The position numbers and the translations under genes were made by a program. This document shows, one piece after another, positions 1-53,632 of a stretch of DNA of 64,000 nt; position 1 is the first letter of the stretch; every line of letters begins with the position of its first letter. The notes beneath the pieces were generated by a model, which was not told the DNA's origin, did not search any database, and saw only the letters and a list, made by a program, of their open reading frames with translations. The DNA is from Patescibacteria group bacterium (GTDB taxonomy: Bacteria; Patescibacteriota; Minisyncoccia; Moranbacterales; UBA2206), in NCBI GenBank assembly GCA_022711335.1, contig JAKLFF010000001.1, forward strand, positions 195,016 through 259,015. The letters run 5' to 3'.

Positions 1-612
1 TTTCTTTGATTTCTTTTTGGGAAGCACAAGGCCGTCAAAATCATAATCAAATTTTTTCCTTTCGAGCACCGCAATTTCTCTCGCCACGCCGACATAGCTC
101 ATAGCGTCATGAGAGCGGTCAGGCAAGACCTTAATTTCAATAACAGAATCTTTTGATCTGAAATATTTTGAGATGGGGTCGCCAATCTTCGCGCTTTCAG
201 GCAAAATAAGGATTCCTTCGTGATTTTTTCCGAGTCCTAGTTCGTCTTCAGCACAAAGCATTCCAAAAGATTTTTCTCCTCTAATTTCCGCTTCCTTGAT
301 TTTCATGCCATTGGAAAGATTTGTATCAACCAAAGCCACCGGGACTTTGTCTCCGGCTTTTATATTCCATGCTCCACAAACAATATTTAAAGCAGAACCA
401 GCACCAACATCAACTTTCAATAATTGCAGCTTGTCGGCATTTGGATGCTTTTTTATTTCTAAAATTTTTCCGACTATCACGCCGGGAATATTAATCTCGC
501 CCTTTTCCAGTCCTTCCACTTCAAAAGAATGGAACGTCAAATCTTCCATCACTTTCTCGGGCATTTTTTTGGTTCCGGATAATTCTTTTAGCCAGTTATA
601 GGAATATTTCAT
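1..612 (-). CDS. pheT: Phenylalanine--tRNA ligase beta subunit, N-terminal part; gene continues beyond window start
   Basis: Minus-strand translation from the ATG at 610-612 reads MKYSYNWLKEL..., the canonical PheT N-terminus. It lies directly downstream of pheS in the usual pheST order. The + ORF 296..601 is its antisense shadow. Confidence 0.85.
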   Translation of the reverse strand, partial: MKYSYNWLKELSGTKKMPEKVMEDLTFHSFEVEGLEKGEINIPGVIVGKILEIKKHPNADKLQLLKVDVGAGSALNIVCGAWNIKAGDKVPVALVDTNLSNGMKIKEAEIRGEKSFGMLCAEDELGLGKNHEGILILPESAKIGDPISKYFRSKDSVIEIKVLPDRSHDAMSYVGVAREIAVLERKKFDYDFDGLVLPKKKSKK

Positions 613-29203: not shown

Positions 29204-29214
29204 AATTTTTTGTT

Positions 29215-29997
29215 TTATTCGCTTGAGGCGAAATGATTATGATAATAAAGATTCCATTTGCCGCTGAAAACATCGCTGTCTTTTGTCATAAAACTCGCGC
29301 CGTCTTTGCTTTTCAGAAGTTTATGTATCGAGCCGGAATCTATCCCCGCCTTATCCAAAAGAAAACCGAGAATTCTTTGCACGGTAATCGACTGACCTTT
29401 GGCCAGATCGTTCAGTTTCTCGAAGTTGAAATTGTCTTTATATTCTTTCAGTTTTTCCAGCACCAAATCCAGCGAATGGATGGAGCGCCGGGATTGAATC
29501 ATATCAAGAACGGCTTTTTCCAATGTGGCTACCTTCACTGTTCGTCCCTCGATTTGTGAATCTTGCCAGCCGTAGAAGTTTTTCCCGGCAACCTTGATAA
29601 ACCGATACGTTATTCCCTGAATCGTTTTATCGGCTTTCTTTTTGAGACACACGGAAGTTACCGTTCTCGTATGCTGGTCGAAAACCCCGTGATACTGGAG
29701 AGCGGCCTCGAATGAAACATACGATTCGTCCATAATAGCCTGAGCGATAACCAAAACCGACGCTCCGGCAAAGCCCCGCGATTCCAAGTTGGTGATATAA
29801 TAAACTCCTTTTTTAATCCGTACAAGCCAGCCATTTTTGGTCAGTTTGATGACCGTTTTTTTGGCTTTTTGCCTGGTATAGTCCTGCCCCAGTTCGGCAT
29901 AAATTTGGTCAAAATTGACAAATAAGCCGTATTTGGTAATAAGGTTTTCCAACAAAAGGCTCTCTTTTTCGGATAAAATAGTATTGTTTTGGGTCAT
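29215..29997 (-). CDS. AbiEi-type antitoxin/transcriptional regulator
   Basis: 260 aa. N-terminal wHTH-like region. Lies immediately upstream of the AbiEii gene on the same strand. Confidence 0.6.
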   Translation of the reverse strand: MTQNNTILSEKESLLLENLITKYGLFVNFDQIYAELGQDYTRQKAKKTVIKLTKNGWLVRIKKGVYYITNLESRGFAGASVLVIAQAIMDESYVSFEAALQYHGVFDQHTRTVTSVCLKKKADKTIQGITYRFIKVAGKNFYGWQDSQIEGRTVKVATLEKAVLDMIQSRRSIHSLDLVLEKLKEYKDNFNFEKLNDLAKGQSITVQRILGFLLDKAGIDSGSIHKLLKSKDGASFMTKDSDVFSGKWNLYYHNHFASSE

Positions 29998-32973: not shown

Positions 32974-33918
32974 TCATACCCACGAATCCATGTCTATTCC
33001 CTTCCGGTGCGCAAATTTGGCCTCTGCTTCGCTCAATATGCCCAGGTAGTGCTTACATGTGGTCTGGATGTCGGAATGCCCCAGAAGGGCCTGAATATGG
33101 CCCAAGCCGATGCCCTTCTTTAGCAGCATGGTCGCGAAGCTGTGGCGAATGACATGCGCCGTATAATTCTTCTTGATCCCCGACTTTTTCCGGTAATTTC
33201 TGAAATTTCTCTGGGCGTCGTTTCTGTCCCACCGGTTCGTTTTGCTTTCGGCGACAAAAACGTATTCTCCCTCGTATCCCCTTCTCTCGATATATTCACG
33301 GATGCAATCGAGAGACAGCTTCGTGAAATACAATTTTCTCTCTTTGTTTCCTTTTCCGACAATCAGCGCTTCTTTCCTCCGCCAGCTTATGTCTTCGATC
33401 TTCAAATCCAATGCTTCGCTTATCCGGCATCCGGTCGAAATAAGAATGGCGATAAATGCCCGGAATCTCAAATCTCTCATACTCCGTTGTCCGACCGAAC
33501 TGAAAACCTGTTTCAGTTCTTCTTCCGTCAGATACTCGACCGTTCTTTTGGGCACTTTCGGTCTTCTTATTTTTTCGGCATCCATGACATTGAGTCGCAA
33601 TTCGCCCCTACAAAATCTCATCAGATTTCTGATCACGGAAAAATTATGCGCTTTGGTCGTCTGTTTCAACTCCCGCCAGTTATATTCCTTCTTGAGAGCG
33701 ATTATATGTTCCATGTTTATTTTTTCCACCTCCAGATCTCCCAGTATGTCTATCGTCCATCTTATCGTTCTTTTATATTTGGCAATGGAAGACGCAGCCA
33801 TTTCGCCTTCCACTTCGCAGTAATCCAAATACAATTTTCCGGCTTCGCCGATCGTTATTCTTTTTCTTTTACAAAAAAATGACATCATATGGTTTATTCT
33901 TAAGAAATTAAAAAACAA
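32974..33918 (-). CDS. Tyrosine recombinase (XerC/D-like or phage integrase family)
   Basis: 314 aa. Catalytic region ARHSFATMLL...LLGHSDIQTTCKHYL carries the R/H/R/Y pattern. Confidence 0.8.
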   Translation of the reverse strand: MFFNFLRINHMMSFFCKRKRITIGEAGKLYLDYCEVEGEMAASSIAKYKRTIRWTIDILGDLEVEKINMEHIIALKKEYNWRELKQTTKAHNFSVIRNLMRFCRGELRLNVMDAEKIRRPKVPKRTVEYLTEEELKQVFSSVGQRSMRDLRFRAFIAILISTGCRISEALDLKIEDISWRRKEALIVGKGNKERKLYFTKLSLDCIREYIERRGYEGEYVFVAESKTNRWDRNDAQRNFRNYRKKSGIKKNYTAHVIRHSFATMLLKKGIGLGHIQALLGHSDIQTTCKHYLGILSEAEAKFAHRKGIDMDSWV

Positions 33919-34313: not shown

Positions 34314-35375
34314 CTATAAACCGCTATTTAACTCTGACCGTATGATACTTGCAACCTGCTTCATTATCCCATTTACCCCAACAGTCAACCTAATATATCT
34401 TGTTAGCGGATTTGGTGTTTCTTTGAATTCTATATTATTATTCTCAAAAGCTTTTAACATAGTGTCTCTTTTAGATCCAAAATTGATTAAAACAAAATTT
34501 CCGCCACCCTCGATCACATCAAATCCCATTTTTTTTAATTCTTTAGCAAATTTTTTTCTTGCGATTAGTATCTTATTTACTGAATTCTTCAAATATTTAC
34601 CGTCAGTACAAACAACCTCGACCGCTCTTGCCGCTAACGCAGTCACTTCTCTGAAAGGTTTAAATCTTCCTATCATTTTGGCTAATCCCTCATTGGTCAG
34701 TATATAACCAATTCTTAACCCCGCTAATCCGACATTCTTAGAAAAACTACGTATTATAATAACATTCGAAAATTCATCAACTAAAGGTGACGCGTCAATA
34801 CGCCCAAAATCAGCATATACTTCATCAATGACAACTAAAATATCTCTCTCTTCGGCTTTTCTGACGAATTCTCTTAGCCTATCAACAGAAAAAATATATC
34901 CTGTAGCACCATTGGGGTTAGCAATAAGTACTACTTTTACATCAGGTGAAATTAATTTAGCCAAGGTGTCATCTGAACAACTACCATCATCCTCACAATA
35001 AACTTCAATCAACTTACAATTTAATTCCTGTGAATGTATCTTATACATTTCAAATGTTGGAGCAATGGTTGCGATAACAGCGCCCGGATCACAAAATGTC
35101 TCTAGTATCATTTTCATTGCGCCATCCGCTCCATTTGACAATATCAAATTTTCGTTGGGCTGATTTAAAAACTGAGATAATGCATTATATGCCCTGCTTA
35201 CTTCAGGATAAGCACTAGCCATTTCTGCCGAAAAACCTTTTATTATTTTCCTAAATAAAGATTTTGGCATAGATGGTACATATTCATTCATTCCCAATCT
35301 GACTCTGTCGAGACGAGTGAGAAAATCCTGGTTGTTACGCACAATATCATTTACATGTTCTCTGCATTTAATCAT
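34314..35375 (-). CDS. Class I/II PLP-dependent aminotransferase (HisC/CobD-like)
   Basis: 353 aa. Motifs VIANPNGATG and SFSKNVGLAGLRIGY, the latter holding the PLP-lysine. Confidence 0.75.
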   Translation of the reverse strand: MIKCREHVNDIVRNNQDFLTRLDRVRLGMNEYVPSMPKSLFRKIIKGFSAEMASAYPEVSRAYNALSQFLNQPNENLILSNGADGAMKMILETFCDPGAVIATIAPTFEMYKIHSQELNCKLIEVYCEDDGSCSDDTLAKLISPDVKVVLIANPNGATGYIFSVDRLREFVRKAEERDILVVIDEVYADFGRIDASPLVDEFSNVIIIRSFSKNVGLAGLRIGYILTNEGLAKMIGRFKPFREVTALAARAVEVVCTDGKYLKNSVNKILIARKKFAKELKKMGFDVIEGGGNFVLINFGSKRDTMLKAFENNNIEFKETPNPLTRYIRLTVGVNGIMKQVASIIRSELNSGL

Positions 35376-35600
35376 AAAATTGAATTTAACAATTTAACGT
35401 ATAAGCTAAGCCTATGCTTGCTTTTTTATGGTATCACCGGATAAAAATTAATTCAAGATTCTTAACAAATCTAGGAGAATTCGATAAAATGGATAATAAG
35501 GATAAAGCAGCCAGCGGTTAGCGGTCTCAGTCATTGCTAAAAATGACAATATGTGGTATGATTAGAAGCCATCAGACACCCTACTAATTATTTTAAACAT

Positions 35601-37502
35601 ATGGGTATATTTAAAAAAGTCGAATTAAACCTAAATATTAAGCAGCAGGAAATATCCCCAAACGATATATTTTTTGTTATTGATAAAAATAAAAAAATAA
35701 CAACTTTTAGCATTAATAACATCTCCTTAAAATTGCCTGAATTACCGCTAGAAAGACCCTCTATAATAAAATCAGGAGTTGGATTTATTACTCTTGAAGA
35801 TCTTGAAATACATCCCATGAACTTGGCAAATAGATGGGATATTTTAAAAGATTTTCCTAATTATAAAACATCTGATCACCAAAAAAGATTTATTATTACT
35901 ATTGAAGAATCTGGAATGCTTGAAAGTTATGTCATTCCAAAATTTTTTGAAGAATCCGAGCCAATTGCCAAAATCGTCTTAAACAAAAATCAGTTACCCA
36001 TTCAATTTACTATTGAAATATCGGAAATAAAGAACGGGAAAATTCAATCAGTTAAACCTCAAAAACCAAAAGAATCCGCCAAGATTCTTATGGGTACTCA
36101 AATATTAGGACATGTTCAGGATGCGGCTAAGATTATACGATGGGCAGAAAAAAACGGAACATTGCAGAGTAAGTGGAAATTTGCCTTACCAGCGACAAAA
36201 AGAACTGAAGTTACTAAGAGCTCCTTAAAAAAAGAAGGTATAGACACGAAAAAAATAATTAGCGATTGGTCATATGCGGGAGGAAAAAATTTTAGAACAA
36301 ACCAGGAATACATAGGCGATTTTAGTAAAAAAGAATCGTTTTCAACTGTCGTAGCATTTATTGCTGCGAATGCCAGATTATGTATTGATGTTGCAAAAGG
36401 AAAATATGCTGTGGTATCGACAAATTTTCGATCAGAAGCGCGGATTATGAAAATAATAAATCCAAATATTATTACTATGGGAGTTTCCCACACGTTTTTG
36501 TCAGGAAAATTAGAAAAACGTATAGGTTTACACGATGATCTTCCAAGATTTGCAGCCATGCTTCGGGAGGTACAACAATCTCTTGATCTTGTGCCTAATC
36601 GAATTACCTCTTTAGGAGGAAACGTAAATTATATTGATTATTATTGGAAAGTTTGCGAAGAGAAAATACAAGTACTCGACATATTGCTTTATCGTACTTT
36701 GGATTTTGACACCACTATTCCTCCAGTATTCAATGGCATAACCCAAGTCATTCAGATTCCTCTAGCAATTCGCGACACAAAGATATCAAAAAATAAAGCC
36801 AGGGAAAATATCGCTTCAATAATAGGAAAAAAATTAAAGTCATCTGATAAAATAATCATCCTTTCTGGAGAAAGTGACGATGGATCATTTAAAAAAAGGA
36901 TTGAGAAAGTCATTTGTTTCGCGAAATCAAATCCGAATGTACATGTTGTTATGCCATTAGACCCTAACGATGAAAGAATTTCCGATATCGATATGCCTTC
37001 AAACGCATATACGATAGGGTTCAGGAGAGATTGGCGCGAAATTATTCCTGGAGGGGACATTACTTTTATACGAGGAAGTTGGGGCGAGTTAATTGACCTA
37101 ATATTTTCTGAAACGGTTCCAATAATAACTTCTCCAGGAACGGTACCGACAAATGCAGATTTAAGCACTACGCAATTTTTAACTGAAGTGTCAGAAGAGC
37201 GCGCTTGCAATGTGTCATTGTTTGTAAAAATATTACAATCATACGGCATAAAGACGGAAATGATAAATAGATTATTAGTTGATCTTAATAATCCGTCAAA
37301 TAAATACACCCTACAAAACGCGATAGAGTACGCATTACAATCTGACGTTGCGAATAAAATAAAAGAGGCTCTTTCGGCTATTCCAAAGGACAATATTGCG
37401 GGATGCATTGGAAAATTACATGAGCAATTGCTTGATCTTAAAAAACCTTTTTCAACCGAAAATCTTAAAAATTTGCATCAGAATATTTGGCACCGAAAAT
37501 AA
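35601..37502 (+). CDS. Large hypothetical protein (633 aa)
   Basis: Long + strand ORF in AT-rich DNA with no recognisable domain. It runs divergently from the rSAM/PheRS-like array. Confidence 0.6.
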   Translation: MGIFKKVELNLNIKQQEISPNDIFFVIDKNKKITTFSINNISLKLPELPLERPSIIKSGVGFITLEDLEIHPMNLANRWDILKDFPNYKTSDHQKRFIITIEESGMLESYVIPKFFEESEPIAKIVLNKNQLPIQFTIEISEIKNGKIQSVKPQKPKESAKILMGTQILGHVQDAAKIIRWAEKNGTLQSKWKFALPATKRTEVTKSSLKKEGIDTKKIISDWSYAGGKNFRTNQEYIGDFSKKESFSTVVAFIAANARLCIDVAKGKYAVVSTNFRSEARIMKIINPNIITMGVSHTFLSGKLEKRIGLHDDLPRFAAMLREVQQSLDLVPNRITSLGGNVNYIDYYWKVCEEKIQVLDILLYRTLDFDTTIPPVFNGITQVIQIPLAIRDTKISKNKARENIASIIGKKLKSSDKIIILSGESDDGSFKKRIEKVICFAKSNPNVHVVMPLDPNDERISDIDMPSNAYTIGFRRDWREIIPGGDITFIRGSWGELIDLIFSETVPIITSPGTVPTNADLSTTQFLTEVSEERACNVSLFVKILQSYGIKTEMINRLLVDLNNPSNKYTLQNAIEYALQSDVANKIKEALSAIPKDNIAGCIGKLHEQLLDLKKPFSTENLKNLHQNIWHRK

Positions 37503-37563
37503 ATAAAATAGCCCGACAAAGTTATTGGGCTATTTTAATAGAATTTATGTGGCTTTATTTAGT

Positions 37564-38520
37564 CTATTCGGGAACAGAGCAATGTCTGCAAATTTTAATT
37601 TTATTCGTTCCATTCAACATACTTTTTAATATTTTTTTCCTGTTTTCAGTATTCCACCAATTATTATCTCTTAATATATTGCCCAAATTAAAATCGGCAT
37701 TGTAGTCATGGAAGCACAGACCAATATCACCATTTGCATTAACGAGTAGATTTTCCCATGGCCACATACAATGGTTTATAGTGTAATTGTCTGAGATTTC
37801 TTTTGCTTTAGTTGTTTTATATCTGGTGTTTTTAGTACTTGTTGGCACAAACTTTAGATTGACTTTTCTATCTTCATATCCGCTCATATAAGCGTTAAAA
37901 GTTTTAAAGATAGTTTTGTCTACTCCTATATTTTTGCAAATATCCGAAAATTTATCCATTTCGTTTTCGTTATGCTTCATAACAATAAATTGGGCTACAA
38001 CAACGGGCTTTTTAGCTCTCATGTTTTTTTTAAGTTCTGTGAGATCTTTGATATTTTTTAACAAAACATTTAAATCGCCTCCTGAACGATATTTCTTGTA
38101 CGTTTCATTAGATGCTCCATCAATAGAGATGTTGATATAATCCAGACCTGATTTAATTAATTTTTTTGAAACTTCTTTATTTAATAACAACCCATTGGAG
38201 TGAAACCCGACTGTTTCTATTTTATTGTCCTTTGCAAATTTTACCATTTTAGCAATATCCGGATTCATCAATGGCTCTCCATAATTAAACAGTGCTATTT
38301 CTCGCACGCTATCGTTAATCAGCCTGATTATTTTTTTGAAATTATCATATGACATCAAGGTCTCATTTTTAATTTTTCCTCTCCCCATGGGACACGAGAA
38401 ACATCTCAAGTTGCAAAAACGACTAACCTCTATCCTAGCTCTTATCGGCATCGGAATATTGTTAGCATCAAATTTTGATGGCATATTCTTCTTATTGTTA
38501 CTAAATGTAATTTTTCTCAT
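37564..38520 (-). CDS. Radical SAM protein with C-terminal SPASM/twitch-like Cys cluster
   Basis: 318 aa. CNLRCFSC matches the CxxxCxxC radical SAM cluster. The C-terminal cysteines in CMWPWEN...CFHDYN...CRHC fit an auxiliary cluster. Confidence 0.75.
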   Translation of the reverse strand: MRKITFSNNKKNMPSKFDANNIPMPIRARIEVSRFCNLRCFSCPMGRGKIKNETLMSYDNFKKIIRLINDSVREIALFNYGEPLMNPDIAKMVKFAKDNKIETVGFHSNGLLLNKEVSKKLIKSGLDYINISIDGASNETYKKYRSGGDLNVLLKNIKDLTELKKNMRAKKPVVVAQFIVMKHNENEMDKFSDICKNIGVDKTIFKTFNAYMSGYEDRKVNLKFVPTSTKNTRYKTTKAKEISDNYTINHCMWPWENLLVNANGDIGLCFHDYNADFNLGNILRDNNWWNTENRKKILKSMLNGTNKIKICRHCSVPE

Positions 38521-38533
38521 ACTTCACTGATTA

Positions 38534-40150
38534 CTATTTTAATGGATGGGCATGTTCCGACTCCAAATCAACATTTGCATTTTTAAAATCAAACCGTGAA
38601 TCAATTTCTTTTTTCAGTTTTACCAAAAATTTTACGAACTTGGAATTTGATTCCGTACTGGAATAGGGAGACATTATATAAGCCTTCAGCGAATATAAAG
38701 GATAGGGATTGGCGCCTGTAGAATTGCTGGGCATTTCATCCAAGTAATAAGGATTTCCCAATTCAGAAATTTTCTTTAGAAAAAATGTTGTATAGTTGTT
38801 TCTAACATTCGCCTCTTCTTCATAGCTAGTGAAAGAAATATTTTGGGGTATGCGAGGCACAAACATAACACAAACGCCCAAACCATTTGAATTGATAATT
38901 TCAAAACTATCCGTTTCTTGCAACTTATTTTGCAAATCAACCGCTACCTCAGTCAGATATGCAACCAAACATTGAAATCCTGTTACTCCAAGAACATTCA
39001 ATGCGACATAGGCCGAATTCGGTCCGTCTCCCGGTCTGGAATTTTCAATAGAATATTTAAATGGCCATCTCCAAAAATCACTGTTTTTATACAAAGATTT
39101 TTTATCTTTTACCATAAAAGCACATGACATATATGGACAAAAACCCATCTTGTGAAAATCTATGCCAAACGAATCAGCCTGATAGAGATCTTTCAAATAT
39201 TTTATTATTTCTGATATCCTTTCCCGCGCTACTGGTTCGATTTTTAAAGGATTCAACTGAAAATCATAATCTTTGAAAAATATCCACGGAAATGCGACAA
39301 CAGCATCCACATGCACATGAGGTGTATAATTTAGATCAAGCTCTTTAACTAATCTGTCTCTTAACGCAACAACTTCTCTAATAGGATCAACAACCATATT
39401 GTTGGTTGATCCTCCTGAGATAATAATAGCGGCAATCTTCTTTCCCTCTTTGCTTTTTTCTCTAATAACTCTTTCCATTTCTACTAGATCAACTCTGCTA
39501 TCCTTGCCAGTTTTTATTTTAAACATGTTGTTTATCCCGATGCCAAGCCAATCAACATCTTGTTTGTGCGCAGGATGTCCTGATGCAGTTGAAAGAACTA
39601 TAACGTCTTCTTTTACGCCTTTCTCCGAAGATTCCGGGGAACAATTTTTTAAGCCTAACTTTATTCCATACATTATTGTTGCTTTTCCTCCCCAAGTAAA
39701 AGCTCCTCCGGCTTCTTGCCAATTCCAGCCGATATATTCAGCAATGGATTTTATAACCTTTTGTTCGATTATTAGGCTATCCCCGCAAGCAGTATCAAGA
39801 CAAAGATTGGGATTGTACAGGGCCGTAAATGTCTTAGCGGCAACAGTAGGCATAACGGGAGAAGCAACGACGTTATACATCGAATTTGGTGAATGCCATC
39901 TGCAAACACCCTGAAATAACTCAGCTATAAGCGCTGAATGTTGCCCTTTTGAGATGCCTTCGCTCGGGATCCTAAAATTCTGAATAGCTGATTCGGCATA
40001 CTCGGCTTTTGAAGACAAAGTGCATTTTGATAAATCAGTAATTTTCAATATTTCATCATGCGTATTTCTAATGTCTTGAAGCAAAGAAGAAATCGAATCC
40101 GTCTCAGGATTATAAAACAAATCTCTTATTTTTTTAGACAATTTAACCAT
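38534..40150 (-). CDS. PLP-dependent group II decarboxylase
   Basis: 538 aa. DFHKMGFCPY matches the PLP-lysine motif (S/D-x-HK) of group II amino-acid decarboxylases. Confidence 0.65.
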   Translation of the reverse strand: MVKLSKKIRDLFYNPETDSISSLLQDIRNTHDEILKITDLSKCTLSSKAEYAESAIQNFRIPSEGISKGQHSALIAELFQGVCRWHSPNSMYNVVASPVMPTVAAKTFTALYNPNLCLDTACGDSLIIEQKVIKSIAEYIGWNWQEAGGAFTWGGKATIMYGIKLGLKNCSPESSEKGVKEDVIVLSTASGHPAHKQDVDWLGIGINNMFKIKTGKDSRVDLVEMERVIREKSKEGKKIAAIIISGGSTNNMVVDPIREVVALRDRLVKELDLNYTPHVHVDAVVAFPWIFFKDYDFQLNPLKIEPVARERISEIIKYLKDLYQADSFGIDFHKMGFCPYMSCAFMVKDKKSLYKNSDFWRWPFKYSIENSRPGDGPNSAYVALNVLGVTGFQCLVAYLTEVAVDLQNKLQETDSFEIINSNGLGVCVMFVPRIPQNISFTSYEEEANVRNNYTTFFLKKISELGNPYYLDEMPSNSTGANPYPLYSLKAYIMSPYSSTESNSKFVKFLVKLKKEIDSRFDFKNANVDLESEHAHPLK

Positions 40151-40188: not shown

Positions 40189-41349
40189 TTATCTTAACGT
40201 GACTCCTAAATCTTTTTCTGTCATTTTGCGAATTTCCTCTTGAATTTTATTTATCTCTTCATTAGTCAAAGTTCTTTCCATTGAACGATAAATTATGCGA
40301 AATGTGTAACTTTTTTTGCCTTCACCAAATTTTTCTTCATTTTCATATTCATCCAATAATTTAACCTCTTCAATCAGATCATTCGAATAGTCTCTAACAA
40401 TTTCATAATAATTGTTAAGACTTATGTTTTTGTCAATGATAAACGAAATGTCTCTCATTGTAGCTGGGAATTTGCTGACCTCTTCAAACTTACTATTTAT
40501 ATCTCGAAACTGACTGGTAATCCTCGGGTCATTCGACCATAAAACTCTGATGTCGCCAATATCCATCTTTATCATTGCCAATCTTTCTCCAAAACCGAAA
40601 GCCCAGCCGTTGTAAACTTCCGGATCCAAACCGAAATTTCTCAAAACGATCGGGTTTACTAATCCAGCTCCATTTACCTCCATCCAATCCCCGTTAAATT
40701 TAATGTCCATTTCAAGACTCTGTACCGTATAGGGAAATGTGTCTTCAATGAATTTATACTCTATATCTGAACCGAAAATACCCTTAGCCAAATCGACTTG
40801 TACGCTCTTTAGATCGTTTTGTGTTATAACTTTTTTTTCTTTTTTGCAAATTAGTAACCCATCAATTTGATGGAAAGCTGGATAATGGCTTCTGTCAATT
40901 TCGTCCTTTCTAAAAACGATACCAGGCGCCAGAGCCTTTATTTCCCCCTCACGCTCTAATCTTTTTAGAACTTCTGGGTCTTTCAGATAAAAAGACCAGA
41001 AAGCCGTCATTTGAGTTCGCAAGATATGATCCTTATCTAAGTAGTAAGTATCTGTTTCATTTCTGGAGGGATGATCCTTCGGTGCATTCAATAAATCAAA
41101 ACACTGTTCAACGGTAACTACTCGAGGAAATTCTACAATATCGAAATCTTTAAATGTCGACAGATTGATTATCTGATCGAATAAAATTTTTACAGGCGAG
41201 TTTTCTTTTTTAGAAAGATCCGGCAGTGCTAAAAATCTTTTTATACGCTCTGCTTTTGTATCATTTCTTTTATTCAATCCGTCAATCAATGTTTTTTCAT
41301 TTTTGTTCTCTATTATAATTTTTCTCATATTTGATTTGCTAAGTTTCAC
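40189..41349 (-). CDS. Monomeric-type phenylalanyl-tRNA synthetase paralog: PheS-like catalytic core fused to a PheT-like C-terminal FDX-ACB anticodon-binding domain
   Basis: 386 aa. It aligns by eye to the window's own pheS across motif 1, motif 2 (FRKDEIDRSHYPAFHQ versus FRNEATDTTHEHTFHQ) and motif 3 (GWAFGFGERLAMI versus GFAWGIGLERLAMM). The C-terminal segment FPATMRDISFIIDKNI...EGKKSYTFRIIYRSMERTLTNEEINKIQEEI matches the PheT FDX-ACB consensus (FPAVxRDLAFVVD...GKKSLAFRLTFRS.ERTLTDEEV). Confidence 0.75.
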   Translation of the reverse strand: MKLSKSNMRKIIIENKNEKTLIDGLNKRNDTKAERIKRFLALPDLSKKENSPVKILFDQIINLSTFKDFDIVEFPRVVTVEQCFDLLNAPKDHPSRNETDTYYLDKDHILRTQMTAFWSFYLKDPEVLKRLEREGEIKALAPGIVFRKDEIDRSHYPAFHQIDGLLICKKEKKVITQNDLKSVQVDLAKGIFGSDIEYKFIEDTFPYTVQSLEMDIKFNGDWMEVNGAGLVNPIVLRNFGLDPEVYNGWAFGFGERLAMIKMDIGDIRVLWSNDPRITSQFRDINSKFEEVSKFPATMRDISFIIDKNISLNNYYEIVRDYSNDLIEEVKLLDEYENEEKFGEGKKSYTFRIIYRSMERTLTNEEINKIQEEIRKMTEKDLGVTLR

Positions 41350-41458
41350 CCTGTGGCATTAACTTAATATCTTATTATTTCATAAATATTACCTTTTAAA
41401 ATGGTTTTTGTCAAAATTTGTGTAATAAATTTGAAATCATAAAATTAGAATGATTTTG

Positions 41459-42316
41459 TCATCCCAAGTCTCTCATATCGGGCTCGCCTTCTATAAATTC
41501 TGATTCAAGGCCAATATTTTCAAAATACTCCGTCATTTTTATACAAGCAAATTTTTCGGTCGAGTAATGCGTTCCGCCAATCATGTTTATTTTATTTTCC
41601 TTGGCAATTTTGTGAGCTTCAATCGACGGCTCATAATTATTATGGAATGTCACGCCGGTCAGAAACGTATTGATACCAAGCCGCGCGATTTCGGAAAGTA
41701 TTTCATTATCACATCCTCCGCCAGCCACCATCGCTACTTTGCCGTCTTTTATTTCTGACTCACCGTAGTTCCATATTTTAACCTCGTGACCGACAGCATT
41801 CTTGAATACCTCCACTAATTCGGAAATATTTTTACAATCCGTTTTACCGATCACGCCACTTAAAAATCCGAAATATTCAGCGAACTCGTCCATCTGATCC
41901 AGACCAAGCGCTTTTGCAAAATTAACCGACGTGGAATATTCTCCGTTCCTATCAAGCGGAGTGTGCATGGTATAAATTGAGATCTTGTTTTCTTTGAATT
42001 TTTGGAGTAAATCACCGTTCAGATTCACAAACGGCGATTGGCTCTTCTTAATCTTCCAATCTACTGGATGATGCGTAAAAAGCAGAATATTTTGTTCTCT
42101 CTTTTCTAAAAGTTCCTGCATAATTTTCTCGCTCGGAAAAACAGCTGTGTAGGTCTTAGTGATTTCATCCGTATTATCCGCCAGAATTCCCATATACCTT
42201 CTCCTGAAATTTTCCGTAACAAATTTCGGGTCAAATTCAACATTGCTCCAATCGTCTTGGCATTTTTCGAGTTCAAAGTCAGTTTCTAATTTTTGATATA
42301 AGTCCTTAGCATTCAT
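41459..42316 (-). CDS. NIF3-family dinuclear metal-centre protein (YqfO-like)
   Basis: 285 aa. The metal-ligand motifs LLFTHHP...YTMHTPLD fit NIF3. Confidence 0.65.
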   Translation of the reverse strand: MNAKDLYQKLETDFELEKCQDDWSNVEFDPKFVTENFRRRYMGILADNTDEITKTYTAVFPSEKIMQELLEKREQNILLFTHHPVDWKIKKSQSPFVNLNGDLLQKFKENKISIYTMHTPLDRNGEYSTSVNFAKALGLDQMDEFAEYFGFLSGVIGKTDCKNISELVEVFKNAVGHEVKIWNYGESEIKDGKVAMVAGGGCDNEILSEIARLGINTFLTGVTFHNNYEPSIEAHKIAKENKINMIGGTHYSTEKFACIKMTEYFENIGLESEFIEGEPDMRDLG

Positions 42317-42320
42317 AAAA

Positions 42321-43118
42321 TTAAATTAACTTGTATATTTTTTCGGCATTGACTGAAAATATTTTTTCTTCAATCTCTTTTTCTAAACTTAACGACTTTA
42401 CCAGTTCGATATGATCTTCAATCTTACACATCGGCCAATCAGTACCAAAAAGAATTTTGTCCGGCCGGTCGGCGATAGTCTTTTTCAGTATTTCTCTTAT
42501 CTTTTCAATTCCTCCGCTTTTTCCGATCACTTCCTCATCCGCCAAGGCCGCTATTTCAAAGTAAATATTTGGAACATCTTTCGTAATTTCATAGCAATAT
42601 TCAAGCTTTGGCCAATAATAATGAGTAATAATAACTTTTAGTTTCGGATATCTCCTGGCTACTTCAATAATATATTTCGGATCATTCCACTTGGCGCATT
42701 CGCTATCGCCTGAGTTTTCTCCTGTATGAAACAAAACTGGAACATCTAATTTTTCACATAGCTCGTAATACGGCAAACATCTTTCATCGGTTGGATAATA
42801 CGGATCATGACCTGGAAAAAATTTAAGTCCTTTGATTTTTTTATCTTCCAAAAGTCGTTTGTATTTTTCCGCCTCACCCGATCTTCTTTGGATGATTTGC
42901 GGGCTGCCGAGCAAAAACAGATTTTCACGTTTACCGATCAAATCAATGACTTTATCCAGATCGGCAATTTGATCACTTCCCTCAACATTGTCCGGAATAA
43001 TAATGGCCGCGTCTATATTATTTTTTTTCATTTCATCCAAATATAATCTAAAAGCCTCTTCAAGAGAGGCCGCGTTTTTACCATATTTGGAAATGTGAAC
43101 ATGGGAATCAATAACCAT
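42321..43118 (-). CDS. Metal-dependent amidohydrolase (TIM-barrel, Amidohydro_2-like)
   Basis: 265 aa. Starts MVIDSHVHI; a later HTGE...D pattern is present. Confidence 0.6.
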   Translation of the reverse strand: MVIDSHVHISKYGKNAASLEEAFRLYLDEMKKNNIDAAIIIPDNVEGSDQIADLDKVIDLIGKRENLFLLGSPQIIQRRSGEAEKYKRLLEDKKIKGLKFFPGHDPYYPTDERCLPYYELCEKLDVPVLFHTGENSGDSECAKWNDPKYIIEVARRYPKLKVIITHYYWPKLEYCYEITKDVPNIYFEIAALADEEVIGKSGGIEKIREILKKTIADRPDKILFGTDWPMCKIEDHIELVKSLSLEKEIEEKIFSVNAEKIYKLI

Positions 43119-43136
43119 ATATTCTCAGCATACTTT

Positions 43137-43520
43137 TTATTTCCTATTCTCCAAGAACTTTTTTATCCTGTCTGCCATTTCTTGGGGAATTGTTTCTGAC
43201 TTGATAATATAATCGGCAGCGCCAAGTTTTTCCGCCCTATCCTTATACTCTTTCTTGTCTGTATTAGTGAAAACAAAAACTGGAATATCCTTGGTGCTTG
43301 GATCTTTTTTCAACTTCTCCATTATATCCAATCCGTTCTCGTGCCAAAGTATTATGTCTAAAAGAACGATATCCGGTCTATCCAGAGAAACCATTTTCAA
43401 AGCATCGGCAATATTGGTAGCCGGTATTGTAAGAAGACCCTTTACATTGAAAACCTGTTGAAAAAGAAATAGTTGCTCTGGATCGTCTTCAACAAGTAAA
43501 ACTTTTATTATATCAGACAT
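43137..43520 (-). CDS. Single-domain response regulator (CheY-like receiver)
   Basis: 127 aa. VLLVEDDPEQ...D(54)IIL carries the phospho-acceptor Asp; a later K is present. Confidence 0.8.
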   Translation of the reverse strand: MSDIIKVLLVEDDPEQLFLFQQVFNVKGLLTIPATNIADALKMVSLDRPDIVLLDIILWHENGLDIMEKLKKDPSTKDIPVFVFTNTDKKEYKDRAEKLGAADYIIKSETIPQEMADRIKKFLENRK

Positions 43521-43542
43521 ATTTTTTTCTTTTTTCTAATGA

Positions 43543-45339
43543 TTACATTTTTATGTCTGCCCTTTTTTTGATATATTCCTTTATATCCACCTTGTTCTTA
43601 GGTTTGATTGGCAGCTTCACAAAAAATTCCGCTCCTTTGCCAAGTTCGCTTTCTACCCAAACTTTTCCACCGTGTCCCTCCACAATTTCCTTGATAATGA
43701 ATAATCCCAACCCTGTTCCGTCAGTATACATATCTACAGCATTTTGAGCACGGGCAAATTTTTTGAACAAATTTGGAATTTCTTCAGCTGGAATTCCAAT
43801 TCCATTGTCTTTAACCGAGAAAATGACATCGTCACCATCCCTGCGATTTCCAATAATTATTGTTGCCTTGCCATCCCGCTTATCGCGGACATCAGGCGTT
43901 TGTTTCGGTGAAGGCGTGTATTTGATAGCATTGGTCAGTAAATTGGAAAACGCCTCTTCCAGATATTTCCTTTGCCCAAAAACTTCCGGTACGCTTGCAT
44001 CCAAATCGCCTATCGACAAATCAATCTCCCTTTCCAGTGTTTCCGCCTTGAACCCGTCAATCATTTTTTCAAAAAATTCTTTGACATCTATCTTTTCTAT
44101 TTCCTTGTCCATAACATTGAATTTCTTGTTGGTCAGAGAAGTGGCATTCAAAATATCATTAATAATATCTTCCAGTTTTTGACACTTTGACCTGGCGCCA
44201 TCATAAAACTTCTTCTTTTGTTCTCCGTTAAACGAATCCATTGTTCCGTCCTGAAGCATTGAAATTGTCCCTTTGATGACAGTAATAGGAGTTCTTAATT
44301 GATGCGAAGCAATATTGATAAATTCATTTTTGGCCTGATCGGCTTTTTTTAATTCGACATTGGCAACCTCCAACTGATCATTCTGGCTGGATATTTTTGC
44401 ATTTGCAATTTTTAATTCTTCTTTTTGCTTAATTTCAGCCTTTACGGATTTTACCAACCACCAACCAAATGTTGATACGATTGCCAATGTTACGGCCGTA
44501 AGAATCCTGTTGGTAGAGTCTTGAATAAATGCAAACTGAGAAGCAATAAGTATAATAGTTCCTATTACCAATGCTTGAGCAGCAAAAAGTTTTATATGAA
44601 ACGCTCTATATCGAACAATCAAATACGCCAATAATCCGATAAATATATCCATGCCGAACAGACCGTAATATTCAAGTCGCGAATCGGACAATATACCCAA
44701 GTCGGTAAGATATGCCGCTAGAAATGTTACCATAAAGAAAGAAAAGAGAAATAATTCCATTCCCAATCCCATGAGCCATATCTGTTTCTTAAAATCAACT
44801 TCTGATTTTCGATATTTGCGAATGAGCAGAACGAGTATCCAAGTCATTGCTAATATTCCGAAAAAGACGCGGGAGAACTGAAACAAGGGTCCTTCAAACA
44901 TAAACGCATCGCAATTTGTTATATTAAACCCACTTAAATTTATACTGGTCGGGGATAAAACAATGATAGGAACTGTGAGTATTAAAAAAATACTTTTAAG
45001 CAGAGTAGATACGTCTTTCTTTTCCAGAAAAACGTAAATAAAATATATGCTGAGAATAGATATGAGAGTGGATAATACCCGAAGAAAAGACCACACAAAC
45101 AACATAAGATCGCTATAAATATTTGTCCATAAAATAAGATTTGAAATTACCCAAAGAGAAAAGCATACAGAAATAGCAAATAATAATTTATTTATCAGAA
45201 ATTGTTTACCTTTCCAAAAAACAAAAAAACCAACCAGGAGTGCAATTATGGCTGTTGGTATATGCGAATAATACAGAAGTGCTGGCACATCCGAAGAAAA
45301 TAAAAAATATAGAGGTTTTGAGAATGAATAGCAGATCAT
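43543..45339 (-). CDS. Membrane sensor histidine kinase
   Basis: 598 aa. Seven or eight N-terminal TM helices, a HisKA box (IASHQLRTPIT) and a HATPase_c region (DNGIGIP, GTGLGL). Confidence 0.85.
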   Translation of the reverse strand: MICYSFSKPLYFLFSSDVPALLYYSHIPTAIIALLVGFFVFWKGKQFLINKLLFAISVCFSLWVISNLILWTNIYSDLMLFVWSFLRVLSTLISILSIYFIYVFLEKKDVSTLLKSIFLILTVPIIVLSPTSINLSGFNITNCDAFMFEGPLFQFSRVFFGILAMTWILVLLIRKYRKSEVDFKKQIWLMGLGMELFLFSFFMVTFLAAYLTDLGILSDSRLEYYGLFGMDIFIGLLAYLIVRYRAFHIKLFAAQALVIGTIILIASQFAFIQDSTNRILTAVTLAIVSTFGWWLVKSVKAEIKQKEELKIANAKISSQNDQLEVANVELKKADQAKNEFINIASHQLRTPITVIKGTISMLQDGTMDSFNGEQKKKFYDGARSKCQKLEDIINDILNATSLTNKKFNVMDKEIEKIDVKEFFEKMIDGFKAETLEREIDLSIGDLDASVPEVFGQRKYLEEAFSNLLTNAIKYTPSPKQTPDVRDKRDGKATIIIGNRRDGDDVIFSVKDNGIGIPAEEIPNLFKKFARAQNAVDMYTDGTGLGLFIIKEIVEGHGGKVWVESELGKGAEFFVKLPIKPKNKVDIKEYIKKRADIKM

Positions 45340-45773
45340 AAGTTGTCGTTATTTATTTCATTATTTTGTGGAGATTCTTCTTCGGTACTGTCTTTGTTGT
45401 TTTGAATATCGACCTCTGTTGCACAAGCATCACCGTCAACTTCGGGATCGCAATATGTTTTGGAACAATCGTGATCTCCCAGAAGGCACGAACTAGCTGC
45501 CTCGCAATCAGTTATATCCTCACCACATTCTTTGTATAAATCGGGTGAATATTTTACCATTTTTGAGTAATAGTATTTTTCGGTGCAAGCATCATCGCTA
45601 CAACCCGCAAAACATTTATTTCCATTTACAGCAAGATCACAGGCTCCTTCATATCCAACCAAGTAGTCTTGTTTGGTCATAAAACGATAATAAGAAAAAA
45701 CACCAGCCATAAAGACAAGTGCTACAAGTATGTAGAGAAAGGAGTGATTGTGAATTTTTTGTTTTATATCCAT
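45336..45773 (-). CDS. Cys-rich exported/membrane-anchored protein
   Basis: 145 aa with one TM, then a CxxC-rich acidic domain. Confidence 0.45.
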   Translation of the reverse strand: MDIKQKIHNHSFLYILVALVFMAGVFSYYRFMTKQDYLVGYEGACDLAVNGNKCFAGCSDDACTEKYYYSKMVKYSPDLYKECGEDITDCEAASSCLLGDHDCSKTYCDPEVDGDACATEVDIQNNKDSTEEESPQNNEINNDNL

Positions 45774-45846
45774 AGTCGTTTGCTACATTAATATTATACA
45801 CAAATAATGTTGCTTACGCAATAAGAAGACAAGAGTCCTTCTGTAT

Positions 45847-46806
45847 TTACTTTTTGACAACGTCTTTCGTGTAGTTCTTAAAATCATTCTCCTGGGCATC
45901 ATTAAGCGAAACCGTATACCTTTTGAGAAAATCAACCGGGCGATAACCTAATTTTGTTTCCCTTAAATTTTTGATATTTAAGTCTTGTTGCCAATTCCAC
46001 AATTTAATATCAAGAGTTGTCAGATATCGGGCTAATTCCCTATTAAAAAATTCGTATATACCGCTAAAAGAATTATCGGCTTTGATAAAGTGAGATACCG
46101 CATTTCGATTGGGCAATGTTTCATCGATACCAAAGCAAAGCATTGTGCCATGCAAAAAAACGCAGGATAAAATCAGCTCATGGCTTTTGGCATTTTCCAA
46201 TAAACGACGGAGTGCTTTTTCCTCAAATCTTAGATCGCATGTTTTATTTTGCAATTTTTTTCGACACTCCCATTGTCGCAATGTAAGATAAATTTTGCTT
46301 TGTATCGATAAATCGCTCGGATCTTTTAATCGAAAAACTGCATCGGGATATTCTTTTGAAAATTTTTTAGCAAGACGCCTAAGATCTTTAAACTTAGCGC
46401 CTTGGAGTTCGGATAACTTAGACGGAGAAAATAAGTAATCAAAATTATTGCGATCCTCTTCCACAAGCAAATTTGCAGATTGCAAATGCTTGATTGATTC
46501 TTCCGTTATGAAACGAAGTTTGGGACATATTTTTGAATTGCAAGCAAAAGTCAAAAGCGTGAATGCGGTACTTTCACATTTATTAGTGCCCAAAAAAGAA
46601 AGAAATGGCTCTTTTGTTTCATAGTCCGTAAAACGAATAACCAAATTTCCATTCAGTTTCGCTATTTCACGATCAGCTCTTATATCCCACGCCCATAGAT
46701 TAGTAAAATTAAAAGCCGAATACGGTGGAAATTTTGAAACAAATCTTTCGATCTCTTTTTTGTCCGACAGCTCAAGTTTTTTGAAATTCGGGAATTCAGG
46801 TATCAT
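45847..46806 (-). CDS. Putative aminoacyl-tRNA-dependent transferase (DUF2156/MprF C-terminal LPG-synthase-like)
   Basis: 319 aa. The assignment is by pattern recall only: an N-terminal ...SAFNFTNLWAWD... segment, a domain of about 300 aa and a GNAT-like layout. No search was run. Confidence 0.4.
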   Translation of the reverse strand: MIPEFPNFKKLELSDKKEIERFVSKFPPYSAFNFTNLWAWDIRADREIAKLNGNLVIRFTDYETKEPFLSFLGTNKCESTAFTLLTFACNSKICPKLRFITEESIKHLQSANLLVEEDRNNFDYLFSPSKLSELQGAKFKDLRRLAKKFSKEYPDAVFRLKDPSDLSIQSKIYLTLRQWECRKKLQNKTCDLRFEEKALRRLLENAKSHELILSCVFLHGTMLCFGIDETLPNRNAVSHFIKADNSFSGIYEFFNRELARYLTTLDIKLWNWQQDLNIKNLRETKLGYRPVDFLKRYTVSLNDAQENDFKNYTKDVVKK

Positions 46807-46828
46807 ATTTCAATATGTCGAATTAATT

Positions 46829-47749
46829 TTATTTATAAAAAAGTAGAAGATAGGTGCCGGTTCCTGTTATGCCAATTGCGATGATTTTCTGCCAAACATG
46901 TTTCAGTTCCATTTTCTCAACTACTATCATCGGAAAGAAAACGGTCAGTATCGCGCCAATAATGAAAACGAAAATTGGCTGAAATGATTCCGCAAGCAAT
47001 ACAAGCCCAACTGGGGCGAGAAGATACGCGTAAGCAACGGACACGTCTCCCAATATGTATATAAACTCATTGAAAACATTTAGTGATAAAATATTTTTAG
47101 AGTTATTTTTTAACGCCAATATGAAATTTTCACGATAAGAGCGCATAAAAATAAATATACCGATACCCGTCAATAAGAGCATGGAGTGTCCCCAGAACAA
47201 CGACCTCCAGAGATTTTCTTCAAGTGCTACCGCTTTAAAAATAGTTCCGCCCGATGCCCAAAAAAAAGAAGCCGCCAGCATCGGTATGACAGTACTTTTT
47301 CGAAGTTTGAAATGATTATCCGAATCTATTTCAAAAGCGATGATTGTCGTACCGAAAATAATGATCGCCATGGAAATTAACTGCATGTGAGTTAAAACTT
47401 CCCCAAGCAAAAGATAACCCAATATAGCTCCGAACACAGGAACAAGCTGGTAAAATACTATCACTATGGAGGTTTCTTCGTTCTTAAGGGCTATCAAATA
47501 ACACCACAGCACCCCCACGCTCAACATGCCTCTGACTGCAAGAATAAGAATATTTGTAAAACTAACATCCAGCACTGTTCTGTCCATGAAAAAGAAAAAA
47601 GGTAATGCAAATACGGAAATCAAAGAAGAGAAAAGCAAGATAGTGCCGATCCCGCTCTTTTTAAAATATCTCTCCAAGAGAATTTTATCTATATAATTTG
47701 TCAGAGCATACAAAAACGGCCCGATAAGGGCGATAAAAAACCAGGTCAT
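46829..47749 (-). CDS. EamA/DMT-family transporter
   Basis: 306 aa. About 10 TM helices in two EamA-like halves. Confidence 0.75.
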   Translation of the reverse strand: MTWFFIALIGPFLYALTNYIDKILLERYFKKSGIGTILLFSSLISVFALPFFFFMDRTVLDVSFTNILILAVRGMLSVGVLWCYLIALKNEETSIVIVFYQLVPVFGAILGYLLLGEVLTHMQLISMAIIIFGTTIIAFEIDSDNHFKLRKSTVIPMLAASFFWASGGTIFKAVALEENLWRSLFWGHSMLLLTGIGIFIFMRSYRENFILALKNNSKNILSLNVFNEFIYILGDVSVAYAYLLAPVGLVLLAESFQPIFVFIIGAILTVFFPMIVVEKMELKHVWQKIIAIGITGTGTYLLLFYK

Positions 47750-47974
47750 ATAATTTCTACATATCTAGTAAACTTTAAAATTTCCAATATTTCTTTTTTA
47801 TCCATGTTTTCAATTGTTTATTGCTGATTAAAATATATCACATCCTAGGGCTTTTTCAAGCCTTCAACATCGGATGTAAAATTTTGGTCAAGAAAAAGTA
47901 TACTAGGCCCAAATGGCGCCACAAAAAAAAGAGACTACTGAGTCTCAATAGCCTCCGAGATAAAATGCATGATT

Positions 47975-48322
47975 TTATAATCCCTTAATTCTTTTTTTTC
48001 TTGGTTTCAGCAAAATATTGCAGTGATCATGAACATACATCAAATCACTGATAATTCCTTTTAATGTTTTGTCATGTCTTTTCTGCCATCCCTTTATAGA
48101 AATGTCCTCTCTGATCAGGTTTAAGATTGTTGCCATTTGAGCATGTAACTCATTGTTCTGAATATTAAATTCCAATTGTTTCTTGCGTTGATTATCCACG
48201 TCTTTATGATTTTTTAAATGCAAAAAAGGTCTCCCGTCGGCGGCACCCTTGCGGGCACCCAACACCCTTTCGAGCATTGACCCATGTGAACAGATACCGA
48301 TCAGAAGACCGTTTTTGTTCAC
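47975..48322 (-). CDS. Hypothetical protein
   Basis: 115-aa ORF. Its 5' end overlaps a long hairpin (48281-48327). Confidence 0.3.
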   Translation of the reverse strand: MNKNGLLIGICSHGSMLERVLGARKGAADGRPFLHLKNHKDVDNQRKKQLEFNIQNNELHAQMATILNLIREDISIKGWQKRHDKTLKGIISDLMYVHDHCNILLKPRKKRIKGL

Positions 48323-51933: not shown

Positions 51934-51971
51934 AATTTTGCCTCCTATCTATACGCCATTAATTTATGTAT

Positions 51972-52466
51972 CTATAAATTATTCAAATTCCACTCTCGAC
52001 AAAGTTGCTTTCTTCTTACGGTAGCATTAAACTTCTTTTTTCCCTTACCCGGACATTTAAAATGAGGTAGCTTATCAAGCTCATTCATTAAAGATTCCAG
52101 TTTGGGGGCTATAACATCCAGTCTGTTAATAATATCTTCATTTATAAATCTGATAGTAATTATTCTTTTTTTATCCCAAATCTCTTTTTCCCTCATGATG
52201 TCTTTAACTTTCTGATCTTCCGTAAAATGATACCCGCCGTCAACCTCTATATTTAATCCGTATTTGCTTATAAAAATATCAGAAAATCTAACACCATTTT
52301 TTGTATAGATTTCCCTCTCTAATACAGGCTTAAATTGCCTTTTTTTGCCGATTATCTTCAGGACATCAAACAATTTATTTTGAGCCAGCGTACAGCCATC
52401 CATTCTTTCTCTTTTAAACCTGTCTCTTATTTTATTTTGTCTTTTTAGCCTATCTACCCAAGTCAT
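51972..52466 (-). CDS. DUF559/Vsr-like endonuclease-fold protein
   Basis: 164 aa. The stretch FDV...NIEVDGGYHF...D..R...L...K..IITIRF fits the DUF559 pattern. Confidence 0.5.
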   Translation of the reverse strand: MTWVDRLKRQNKIRDRFKRERMDGCTLAQNKLFDVLKIIGKKRQFKPVLEREIYTKNGVRFSDIFISKYGLNIEVDGGYHFTEDQKVKDIMREKEIWDKKRIITIRFINEDIINRLDVIAPKLESLMNELDKLPHFKCPGKGKKKFNATVRRKQLCREWNLNNL

Positions 52467-53579: not shown

Positions 53580-53632
53580 GTTGTTATAATTGATATTTTT
53601 ATGTAACTTCCAAAGCGTACCTATTATCTAAA

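Follow-up and report, generated by a model that had tools for sequence, protein, structure and literature searches.

Introduction

What would a bacterium that encodes the canonical two-subunit phenylalanyl-tRNA synthetase (PheRS) do with a second, single-chain enzyme of this type? This question is raised by a gene on the minus strand of a 64,000-nt stretch of DNA from a Patescibacteria group bacterium (assembly GCA_022711335.1, contig JAKLFF010000001.1, positions 195,016 to 259,015; hereafter the window). The gene is referred to here as mPheRS, for monomeric PheRS-like. To our knowledge, the textbook view is that monomeric PheRS is restricted to organelles, while bacteria use the (alpha-beta)2 enzyme. 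A first-pass annotation made from the DNA letters described the protein as a PheS core fused to the anticodon-binding domain of PheT, embedded in an accessory operon. It proposed as its role a dedicated tRNA-charging step, an antibiotic-resistant spare synthetase or a diverged amino-acid ligase. Our analysis points to a different answer: mPheRS is probably a lineage-conserved, single-chain, mitochondrial-type PheRS of the Parcubacteria/Paceibacteria, most likely working and editing-free.

Results

Gene, domains and active site

The mechanical open reading frame (ORF) of 386 aa starts at a GTG codon (position 41349) that is not kept in an alignment with the two nearest relatives, loci L010 and L011, whose mPheRS proteins are 87% and 94% identical to that of the window. 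Almost every orthologue in the databases is annotated with a length of 379-381 aa, its first Met corresponding to residue 8 of the 386-aa ORF. These comparisons indicate that translation almost certainly begins at the ATG at 41328, which gives a protein of 379 aa; the domain and residue numbering used here follows the 386-aa ORF. The fusion described in the first-pass annotation was borne out by Pfam, which finds both the PheS-type catalytic core (tRNA-synt_2d) and, as a clear match at the C-terminus, the FDX-ACB domain, each with a score far over the gathering score (Table 1). The same scan finds neither a Phe_tRNA-synt_N domain nor a B3/B4 editing domain. The exact protein is deposited at NCBI as HRZ95517.1, assigned to a metagenome-assembled genome of Candidatus Moranbacteria, and annotated as 'hypothetical protein'. 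Annotation differs between databases, being 'phenylalanyl-tRNA synthetase alpha chain' at JGI and, for the Wolfebacteria orthologue, 'phenylalanine--tRNA ligase' in UniRef.

The catalytic residues of motifs 2 and 3, on which the fused-PheRS interpretation depended, are in place on alignment, with GIVFRKDEIDRSHYPAFHQIDG as motif 2 and GWAFGFGERLAMIK as motif 3. Conservation was assessed in 121 sequences, i.e., the window protein and its 120 closest homologues (77-100% identical). In this alignment, 219 of the 386 positions are at least 95% conserved, and the motif 2 core GIV[FY]RKDEID.xH[YF]P.FHQIDG, the FPYT strand and motif 3 GWAFGFG[ED]RL are invariant. Accordingly, R147, H155, the FHQ triplet, T208, A250 and R256 do not vary within the clade, and the Tyr of FPYT is present in 121/121 members. 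Organellar and canonical enzymes have Glu where the protein has D163 and Phe where it has Y207, and relative to them one residue is deleted from its motif 3. An Asp following HQx is also common among other fused PheRS-type sequences, and FPY for FPF is common to the mPheRS clade and its nearest bacterial relatives; the deletion in motif 3 appears to be specific to the mPheRS clade. The retained Thr and Ala of the phenylalanine pocket align with what we take to be T251 and A294 of Escherichia coli PheS. The FDX-ACB domain has the motifs RDIS and FRI in common with domain B8 of the organism's own PheT and with human mitochondrial PheRS. Together, the kept motifs may be read as retained recognition of Phe and of the GAA anticodon.

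Structural and phylogenetic relatives

The best solved relative by sequence is human mitochondrial PheRS (8P8X/3CMQ), which is matched with an E-value of 1e-56 and with both domains aligned, while the bacterial PheS structures in the Protein Data Bank match more weakly (E 3.5e-39). The AlphaFold model of mPheRS has a mean pLDDT of 80.3 and a pTM of 0.77, with low confidence only at residues 145-147 and in the inter-domain hinge (258-285). By predicted fold, too, human mitochondrial PheRS is the best solved relative, as the model superimposes on 3CMQ over the whole chain (TM 0.73/0.69 over 388 columns, Foldseek E 3e-27); the open, tRNA-bound form 3TUP fits it more poorly than the closed form 3CMQ. 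Like human FARS2 (3CMQ/3TUP), yeast MSF1 and the proteins described by the profile TIGR00469 (pheS_mito), mPheRS consists of one chain with a PheS-type core and a C-terminal FDX-ACB domain, and like mitochondrial PheRS, to which it is about 31% identical, it lacks the editing domain and domains B1-B7 of the beta subunit. Where the mitochondrial enzyme reads FPFT and HQLE, mPheRS reads FPYT and HQID; it also differs by the loss of one residue from motif 3, and it is a bacterial protein that coexists here with canonical PheRS. In addition, human mitochondrial PheRS has an insertion, absent from bacterial mPheRS, that splits the alignment into two stretches. The mitochondrial-like form is known as PheRS-M in AARS Online and related work (PMC11580382, PMC10810186), and giant-virus PheRS were reported to group with organellar sequences (PMC11304981).

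The catalytic fold and motifs are also those of canonical (alpha-beta)2 PheRS, and B8 of PheT is the same kind of anticodon domain. However, mPheRS has no Phe_tRNA-synt_N coiled coil and no beta subunit, and so no B3/B4 editing. Its core is 32.5% identical to the PheS encoded in the window and its FDX-ACB domain about 27% identical to B8 of the organism's own PheT. With 170.5 bits, mPheRS remains below the cut-off (237.45) of the canonical PheS profile TIGR00468.

In neighbour-joining (NJ) trees (100 bootstraps; most representatives are without taxon label), all fused proteins are split from canonical PheS with a support of 100. The mPheRS proteins of the candidate phyla radiation (CPR) form a clade with a support of 100, which is joined at 98 by P0121, P0122 (from an Oligoflexia metagenome-assembled genome) and P0124-P0126. 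The TIGR00469-type clade is monophyletic at 99 and does not contain the window protein. In these trees, mPheRS thus forms its own bacterial clade outside the TIGR00469-type organellar clade. The group of CPR proteins and bacterial relatives has as its nearest sister group SrmL, the 'PheS-related mystery ligase' (NF051887; support 81), which is likewise a bacterial, fused PheS-like protein of ~350 aa whose profile covers the FDX-ACB region. Membership of mPheRS in SrmL was considered and dismissed on score (241.2 bits on NF051887, cut-off 300) and on motifs. The SrmL proteins P0197, P0241, P0260 and P0173 score 400-446 on the SrmL model and gave no match when searched with FHQ and FPFT patterns, unlike the mPheRS clade, which retains both FHQ and an FPFT-type signature. 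Literature searches found no paper describing SrmL, and none describing a monomeric PheRS in CPR/Parcubacteria or this bacterial clade.

Distribution and inheritance

When every GTDB species was represented by one genome and scanned with a pattern, an mPheRS relative was recovered in at least 488 species genomes. A second PheRS-like enzyme, regarded as unusual in the first-pass annotation, is therefore not unusual within this lineage. The best 80 of these relatives are 65-83% identical to the window protein, and their record names are Moran-, Wildermuth-, Nealson-, Staskawicz-, Taylor- and Ryanbacteria, Paceibacteria, Parcubacteria, or generic or automated labels. Among the automated ones, Bdellovibrionales, Gammaproteobacteria and Nanoarchaeota were judged to be mislabels. 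Of 1.84 billion cluster representatives (50% identity), only 252 fell below 1e-30, and the best among the matches listed is 49% identical to mPheRS.

Over 74 loci, the GC content of the mPheRS gene tracks that of its flanks (range 0.33-0.58, r 0.92, slope 1.02), which argues for a long residence of the gene by vertical descent and indicates that mPheRS is vertically inherited. The same correlation argues against recent horizontal transfer and against an immunity gene, and both were rejected on this ground. Among the closest relatives of the organism, mPheRS diverges more slowly than canonical PheS: identities of mPheRS and PheS are 94/94, 87/83 and about 84/78% for the nearest relatives, and at the homologue of rank 120 they are 77% for mPheRS vs 65% for PheS. 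We take mPheRS to be an old core gene of the Parcubacteria/Paceibacteria group and not part of an accessory cluster.

The canonical PheRS of the same genome

The paralogue claim of the first-pass annotation holds for this genome, since mPheRS and canonical PheRS are encoded on one 470,928-bp contig, with protein accessions that are 86 apart. Of the canonical pair said to lie in the window, pheS is complete and carries the Phe_tRNA-synt_N and tRNA-synt_2d domains, while pheT is represented by its first 204 codons. Sixteen other contigs encode, after an identical PheS, a full-length PheT (780-796 aa) that has the domains tRNA_bind, B3_4, B5, tRNA_synthFbeta and FDX-ACB; the 796-aa form scores 775 bits on TIGR00472 (cut-off 403). 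Between secF and pheS (about 1640-2670; L096-L103), some of the contigs with identical PheS have a string of 34-80-aa ORFs and others only one, which indicates strain-level variation.

Genomic neighbourhood

The neighbours named in the first-pass annotation do lie on the same strand as mPheRS, in the order EamA, DUF2156, 145-aa protein, histidine kinase, response regulator, Amidohydro_2, NIF3, mPheRS, decarboxylase and radical SAM (Table 1). Synteny does not support a conserved accessory operon. Fifteen window proteins, encoded between 34.3 and 51.9 kb together with two genes past the aminotransferase, were searched by tblastn against 91 mPheRS loci. Among the 90 other loci, L010 and L011 alone have the decarboxylase, the radical SAM enzyme and the 633-aa protein near mPheRS, and L010 alone has the aminotransferase as well. 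In none of the 90 was NIF3, the amidohydrolase, the 145-aa protein, DUF2156 or EamA found within 10 kb of mPheRS. A conserved operon was therefore rejected. In the remaining 88 of the 90 other loci the surroundings are of the housekeeping type, i.e., gyrB-secE-nusG-rplK, rpsB-tsf, or tyrS-[free PheT B1-B2]-mPheRS-valS. Downstream of mPheRS lies gyrB in 40 loci, typically as gyrB-ybaB-secE-nusG-rplK, and ValRS follows directly in 13; TyrRS is a neighbour in 14 loci, EF-Ts in 13, S2 in 9, NusG in 13 and L11 in 9. Canonical pheS/pheT was within 10 kb of mPheRS in none of the loci. The gene surroundings of two of the nearest non-CPR relatives (P0122 and P0126) and of the SrmL protein P0241 were also inspected and gave no functional clue. 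Behind the cassette, L010 has secE-nusG-rplK-rplA, which suggests that the cassette was inserted into an ancestral mPheRS...secE neighbourhood. In the window the cassette adjoins a XerC-like integrase (32974-33918), and the composition of the window is mosaic.

Within the gene run, the intergenic distance is greatest directly upstream of mPheRS (109-130 bp). This gap contains a promoter-like site (Table 1) that is kept in L010 and L011, and in L011 the DNA beyond this site has no similarity to the end of NIF3. Eleven of the 91 contigs end less than 600 nt upstream of mPheRS (L001-L003, L010, L011, L017, L021, L036, L052, L053 and L065); assembly may have broken at these places because a highly conserved gene there meets a variable region. 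No tRNA gene was found in the window, and the search of 44 related loci gave a single tRNA-Phe and no tRNA recurring beside mPheRS, so that a dedicated tRNA nearby is not borne out. For an RNA leader such as a T-box, an Rfam scan of the window at gathering thresholds returned only a LOOT RNA elsewhere.

A free-standing PheT B1-B2 gene

In 17-19 loci, all among the closest relatives and mostly with 80-84% mPheRS identity, a PheT B1-B2/YtpR-like gene coding for 131-169 aa is located directly upstream of mPheRS on the same strand. The protein corresponds to residues 1-150 of PheT, the tRNA_bind region. Its closest described counterparts are YtpR/TapR-type proteins (NF045760, NF045867), and that of L007 scores 120 bits on YtpR (cut-off 100). 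The B1-B2 proteins are 55-74% identical to the N-termini of Moranbacteria PheT, which are 67% identical to each other, and hundreds of free-standing B1-B2 proteins are found in metagenomes. The window has no free B1-B2 gene near mPheRS. As the gene usually sits between tyrS and mPheRS, its partner is ambiguous. The recurrent association supports a putative tRNA-directed role.

Table 1. Features of the window and of related loci; positions are those of the window unless stated otherwise.
Feature	Position	Strand	Remarks
Canonical pheT, first 204 codons (B1-B2 region)	1..612	-	cut by window edge
Canonical pheS, alpha subunit, 338 aa	617..1633	-	TIGR00468 324 bits, cut-off 237
Class I/II aminotransferase	34314-35375	-	downstream cassette (cassette span 34314..40150)
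Unknown 633-aa protein	35601-37502	+	downstream cassette, convergent ORF
Radical SAM/SPASM enzyme	37564-38520	-	downstream cassette
Pyridoxal phosphate (PLP) decarboxylase, aromatic-type	38534-40150	-	downstream cassette
Mechanical ORF, 386 aa from GTG	40189..41349	-	stop codon 40189-40191
mPheRS gene, 379 aa from ATG at 41328 (predicted start)	40189..41328	-	
FDX-ACB, C-terminal ferredoxin-fold anticodon-binding domain	40192..40476	-	aa 292-386, E 2.5e-26
Class II PheS-type catalytic core, Pfam tRNA-synt_2d	40507..41214	-	aa 46-281, E 4e-53
Motif 3, GWAFGFGERLAMIK	40567..40608	-	aa 248-261; Ala and invariant Arg kept; one-residue deletion vs GWAFGLGLERL
FPYT, Phe-pocket strand	40726..40737	-	second Phe of the usual FPFT replaced by Tyr; Thr kept
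Motif 2, GIVFRKDEIDRSHYPAFHQIDG	40858..40923	-	aa 143-164; Arg, His, FHQ kept; Asp replaces usual Glu
Promoter-like site TTGACA-17 nt-TAATAT	41386..41414	-	in the NIF3/mPheRS gap
NIF3, Amidohydro_2, response regulator, seven-transmembrane (7TM) histidine kinase, 145-aa unknown, DUF2156/LPG_synthase_C, EamA	41459..47749	-	upstream block
DUF2156/LPG_synthase_C protein	45847-46806	-	possible aminoacyl-tRNA-dependent transferase
Free B1-B2 genes in L001, L007-L009, L012-L018, L020, L058, L078, L079, L083, L085, L087	about 20-180 nt upstream of mPheRS		in related loci

Other features of the window

An apparent prophage occupies 6250-25419 on the minus strand. Its genes include those for a tyrosine integrase (6250-7497), an LPD38 polyvalent protein of 1236 aa, a major capsid protein of the SU10 type (20333-21511) and an Amidase_2 protein; at 23419-25419, a P22-portal-like match is weak and stays below threshold. 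Its GC content is 0.48-0.50 and its GC content at third codon positions 0.52-0.61, compared with about 0.41 for pheS and secDF. No phage in INPHARED exceeds 29% identity to the capsid protein, and a search for att repeats of the prophage found none. An AbiEii/AbiEi type IV toxin-antitoxin pair lies at 28415-29997. The XerC-like integrase beside the aminotransferase/radical SAM cassette is the second tyrosine recombinase of the window and sits at a GC boundary. The LOOT RNA (RF03000; 48242-48376, minus strand) scores 69.5 bits against a gathering score of 46.4 with the full model covered. It lies a short way upstream of the EamA-DUF2156 block, and an ORF that overlaps it (47975-48322) is probably spurious; terminator-like and promoter-like sites are found at 47830-47956. 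A defence-island-like run (49228-63902, minus strand) comprises a 901-aa SF1 helicase, a short FtsK/SpoIIIE-like protein, a C39-like peptidase, a helicase, a protein of 1282 aa that matches a STAND NTPase weakly and below threshold, and a 1181-aa Eco57I/MmeI-type restriction-modification fusion.

Discussion

We propose that mPheRS acts as a mitochondrial-type PheRS, and its mechanism can be modelled by homology to the human mitochondrial enzyme. The class II core would bind Phe and ATP and form Phe-AMP, the hinged C-terminal FDX-ACB domain would bind the GAA anticodon of tRNA(Phe), and Phe would then be transferred to A76 of this tRNA. Since there is no B3/B4 editing domain, no proofreading is expected. 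Transcription of mPheRS appears to have a promoter of its own, and the placement of the gene beside the cassette and the NIF3...DUF2156...EamA block would reflect a local rearrangement in a variable, integrase-flanked region rather than a functional operon. In this genome, mPheRS coexists with the intact canonical (alpha-beta)2 enzyme; in the closest sub-lineages its gene is paired with that of the free PheT B1-B2 protein instead.

Several observations weigh against this assignment. The window protein scores 243.7 bits on the curated profile TIGR00469 and thus stays under its cut-off of 258.35 (its orthologue P0028 reaches 241.1). A streamlined genome of ~1 Mb with two intact PheRS systems suggests that the two are not simply redundant. 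The deletion in motif 3, FPYT and HQID are active-site changes of the clade that could alter specificity. Finally, the decarboxylase gene follows mPheRS after 38-151 bp in this genome and its two nearest relatives, and no terminator was predicted in the 38-bp gap of the window; local co-expression of mPheRS with the cassette is therefore possible.

It is tempting to speculate that Parcubacteria/Paceibacteria translate with mPheRS and the free B1-B2 protein in trans, that the canonical heterotetramer has been displaced in much of the lineage and that the present genome holds both systems. We regard this extension as possible but doubtful. Potentially, pheT was reduced to its B1-B2 module in the genomes with the upstream gene. 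The lists of mPheRS and B1-B2 relatives share many contigs, while the only long contig that the canonical PheS list shares with them is the 470,928-bp contig of this genome. Were both PheRS present in every genome, a rough estimate predicts about 2-3 such contigs, and this gives a weak hint of mutual exclusivity. For the extension as a whole, a further weak hint is that the B1-B2 proteins resemble the PheT N-termini as closely as orthologues resemble one another.

A different use of the same activity would be a specialised second Phe-tRNA(Phe) synthetase for a distinct condition, for example an editing-free enzyme of high turnover, one insensitive to inhibitors from hosts or competitors, or one that is differently regulated. 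The coexistence of two intact systems on one contig, the separate promoter-like site, the lack of B3/B4 editing and active-site differences that could change the binding of inhibitors or analogues are all in keeping with this. Resistance copies of aminoacyl-tRNA synthetases (aaRS), however, are typically sporadic and linked to gene clusters, whereas mPheRS is class-wide, vertically inherited and set in housekeeping surroundings, and no inhibitor biosynthetic gene cluster was identified in the window. We therefore consider specialisation unlikely; the breadth of species, the GC correlation and the housekeeping neighbours likewise argue against the antibiotic-resistant spare synthetase of the first-pass annotation. 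Improbable as well, in our judgement, is a diverged ligase that, similar to SrmL, would use another amino acid (Tyr, m-Tyr or another aromatic one) or an acceptor other than tRNA(Phe). The grouping with SrmL, the 241 bits on the SrmL model and the triad of FPYT, HQID and the shortened motif 3 would fit such an enzyme. Yet the score stays below the SrmL cut-off, HQxD and FPY are found in fused PheRS-type sequences outside the clade as well, the Thr and Ala of the Phe pocket are retained, and RDIS and FRI of the FDX-ACB domain recur in PheT B8 and human mitochondrial PheRS. Since the clade keeps PheRS signature residues that the scored SrmL proteins lack in pattern searches, this option of the first-pass annotation is weakened.

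Pathway-dedicated charging, with mPheRS supplying the DUF2156 transferase or the decarboxylase/radical SAM/aminotransferase cassette and a product leaving through EamA, was the remaining proposal. Precedents exist in VlmL/VlmA (valanimycin), LysX (LysRS-MprF) and the fungal ErdS (AspRS-DUF2156), dedicated pairs of an aaRS and an aminoacyl-tRNA transferase that are either fused or always encoded side by side. Here, too, an additional aaRS-type gene and a DUF2156/LPG_synthase_C gene belong to one same-strand run with short gaps; DUF2156 lies 4.5 kb upstream and the decarboxylase 38 bp downstream, and the order decarboxylase-radical SAM after mPheRS is retained in L010 and L011. In contrast to the precedents, the pairing of mPheRS with DUF2156 occurs in 1/91 loci. 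DUF2156, EamA, NIF3 and the amidohydrolase are within 10 kb of mPheRS in 0/90 other loci and the cassette in 2/90, the DNA upstream of the promoter-like site in L011, the 94%-identical relative, is unrelated to NIF3, and mPheRS is far more widespread than its neighbours in the window. Together with a GC content that follows the host, this largely refutes a dedicated charging step, which we rank lowest among the alternatives and hold to be very improbable.

Conclusions

The reading of mPheRS as a mitochondrial-type PheRS places this architecture in a tightly conserved bacterial clade that spans the Parcubacteria, and removes the case for a novel aminoacyl-tRNA-dependent biosynthetic operon in the window. 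It would offer a minimal, editing-free bacterial PheRS for study, and it bears on the origin of the domain fusion in the mitochondrial enzyme. If the canonical heterotetramer has indeed been displaced in much of the lineage, the fusion of PheS with B8 would have arisen in bacteria, before mitochondria or independently of them, and would not be an organellar novelty. If some CPR genomes lack pheS/pheT, the logic of marker genes and of genome completeness estimates would be affected as well.

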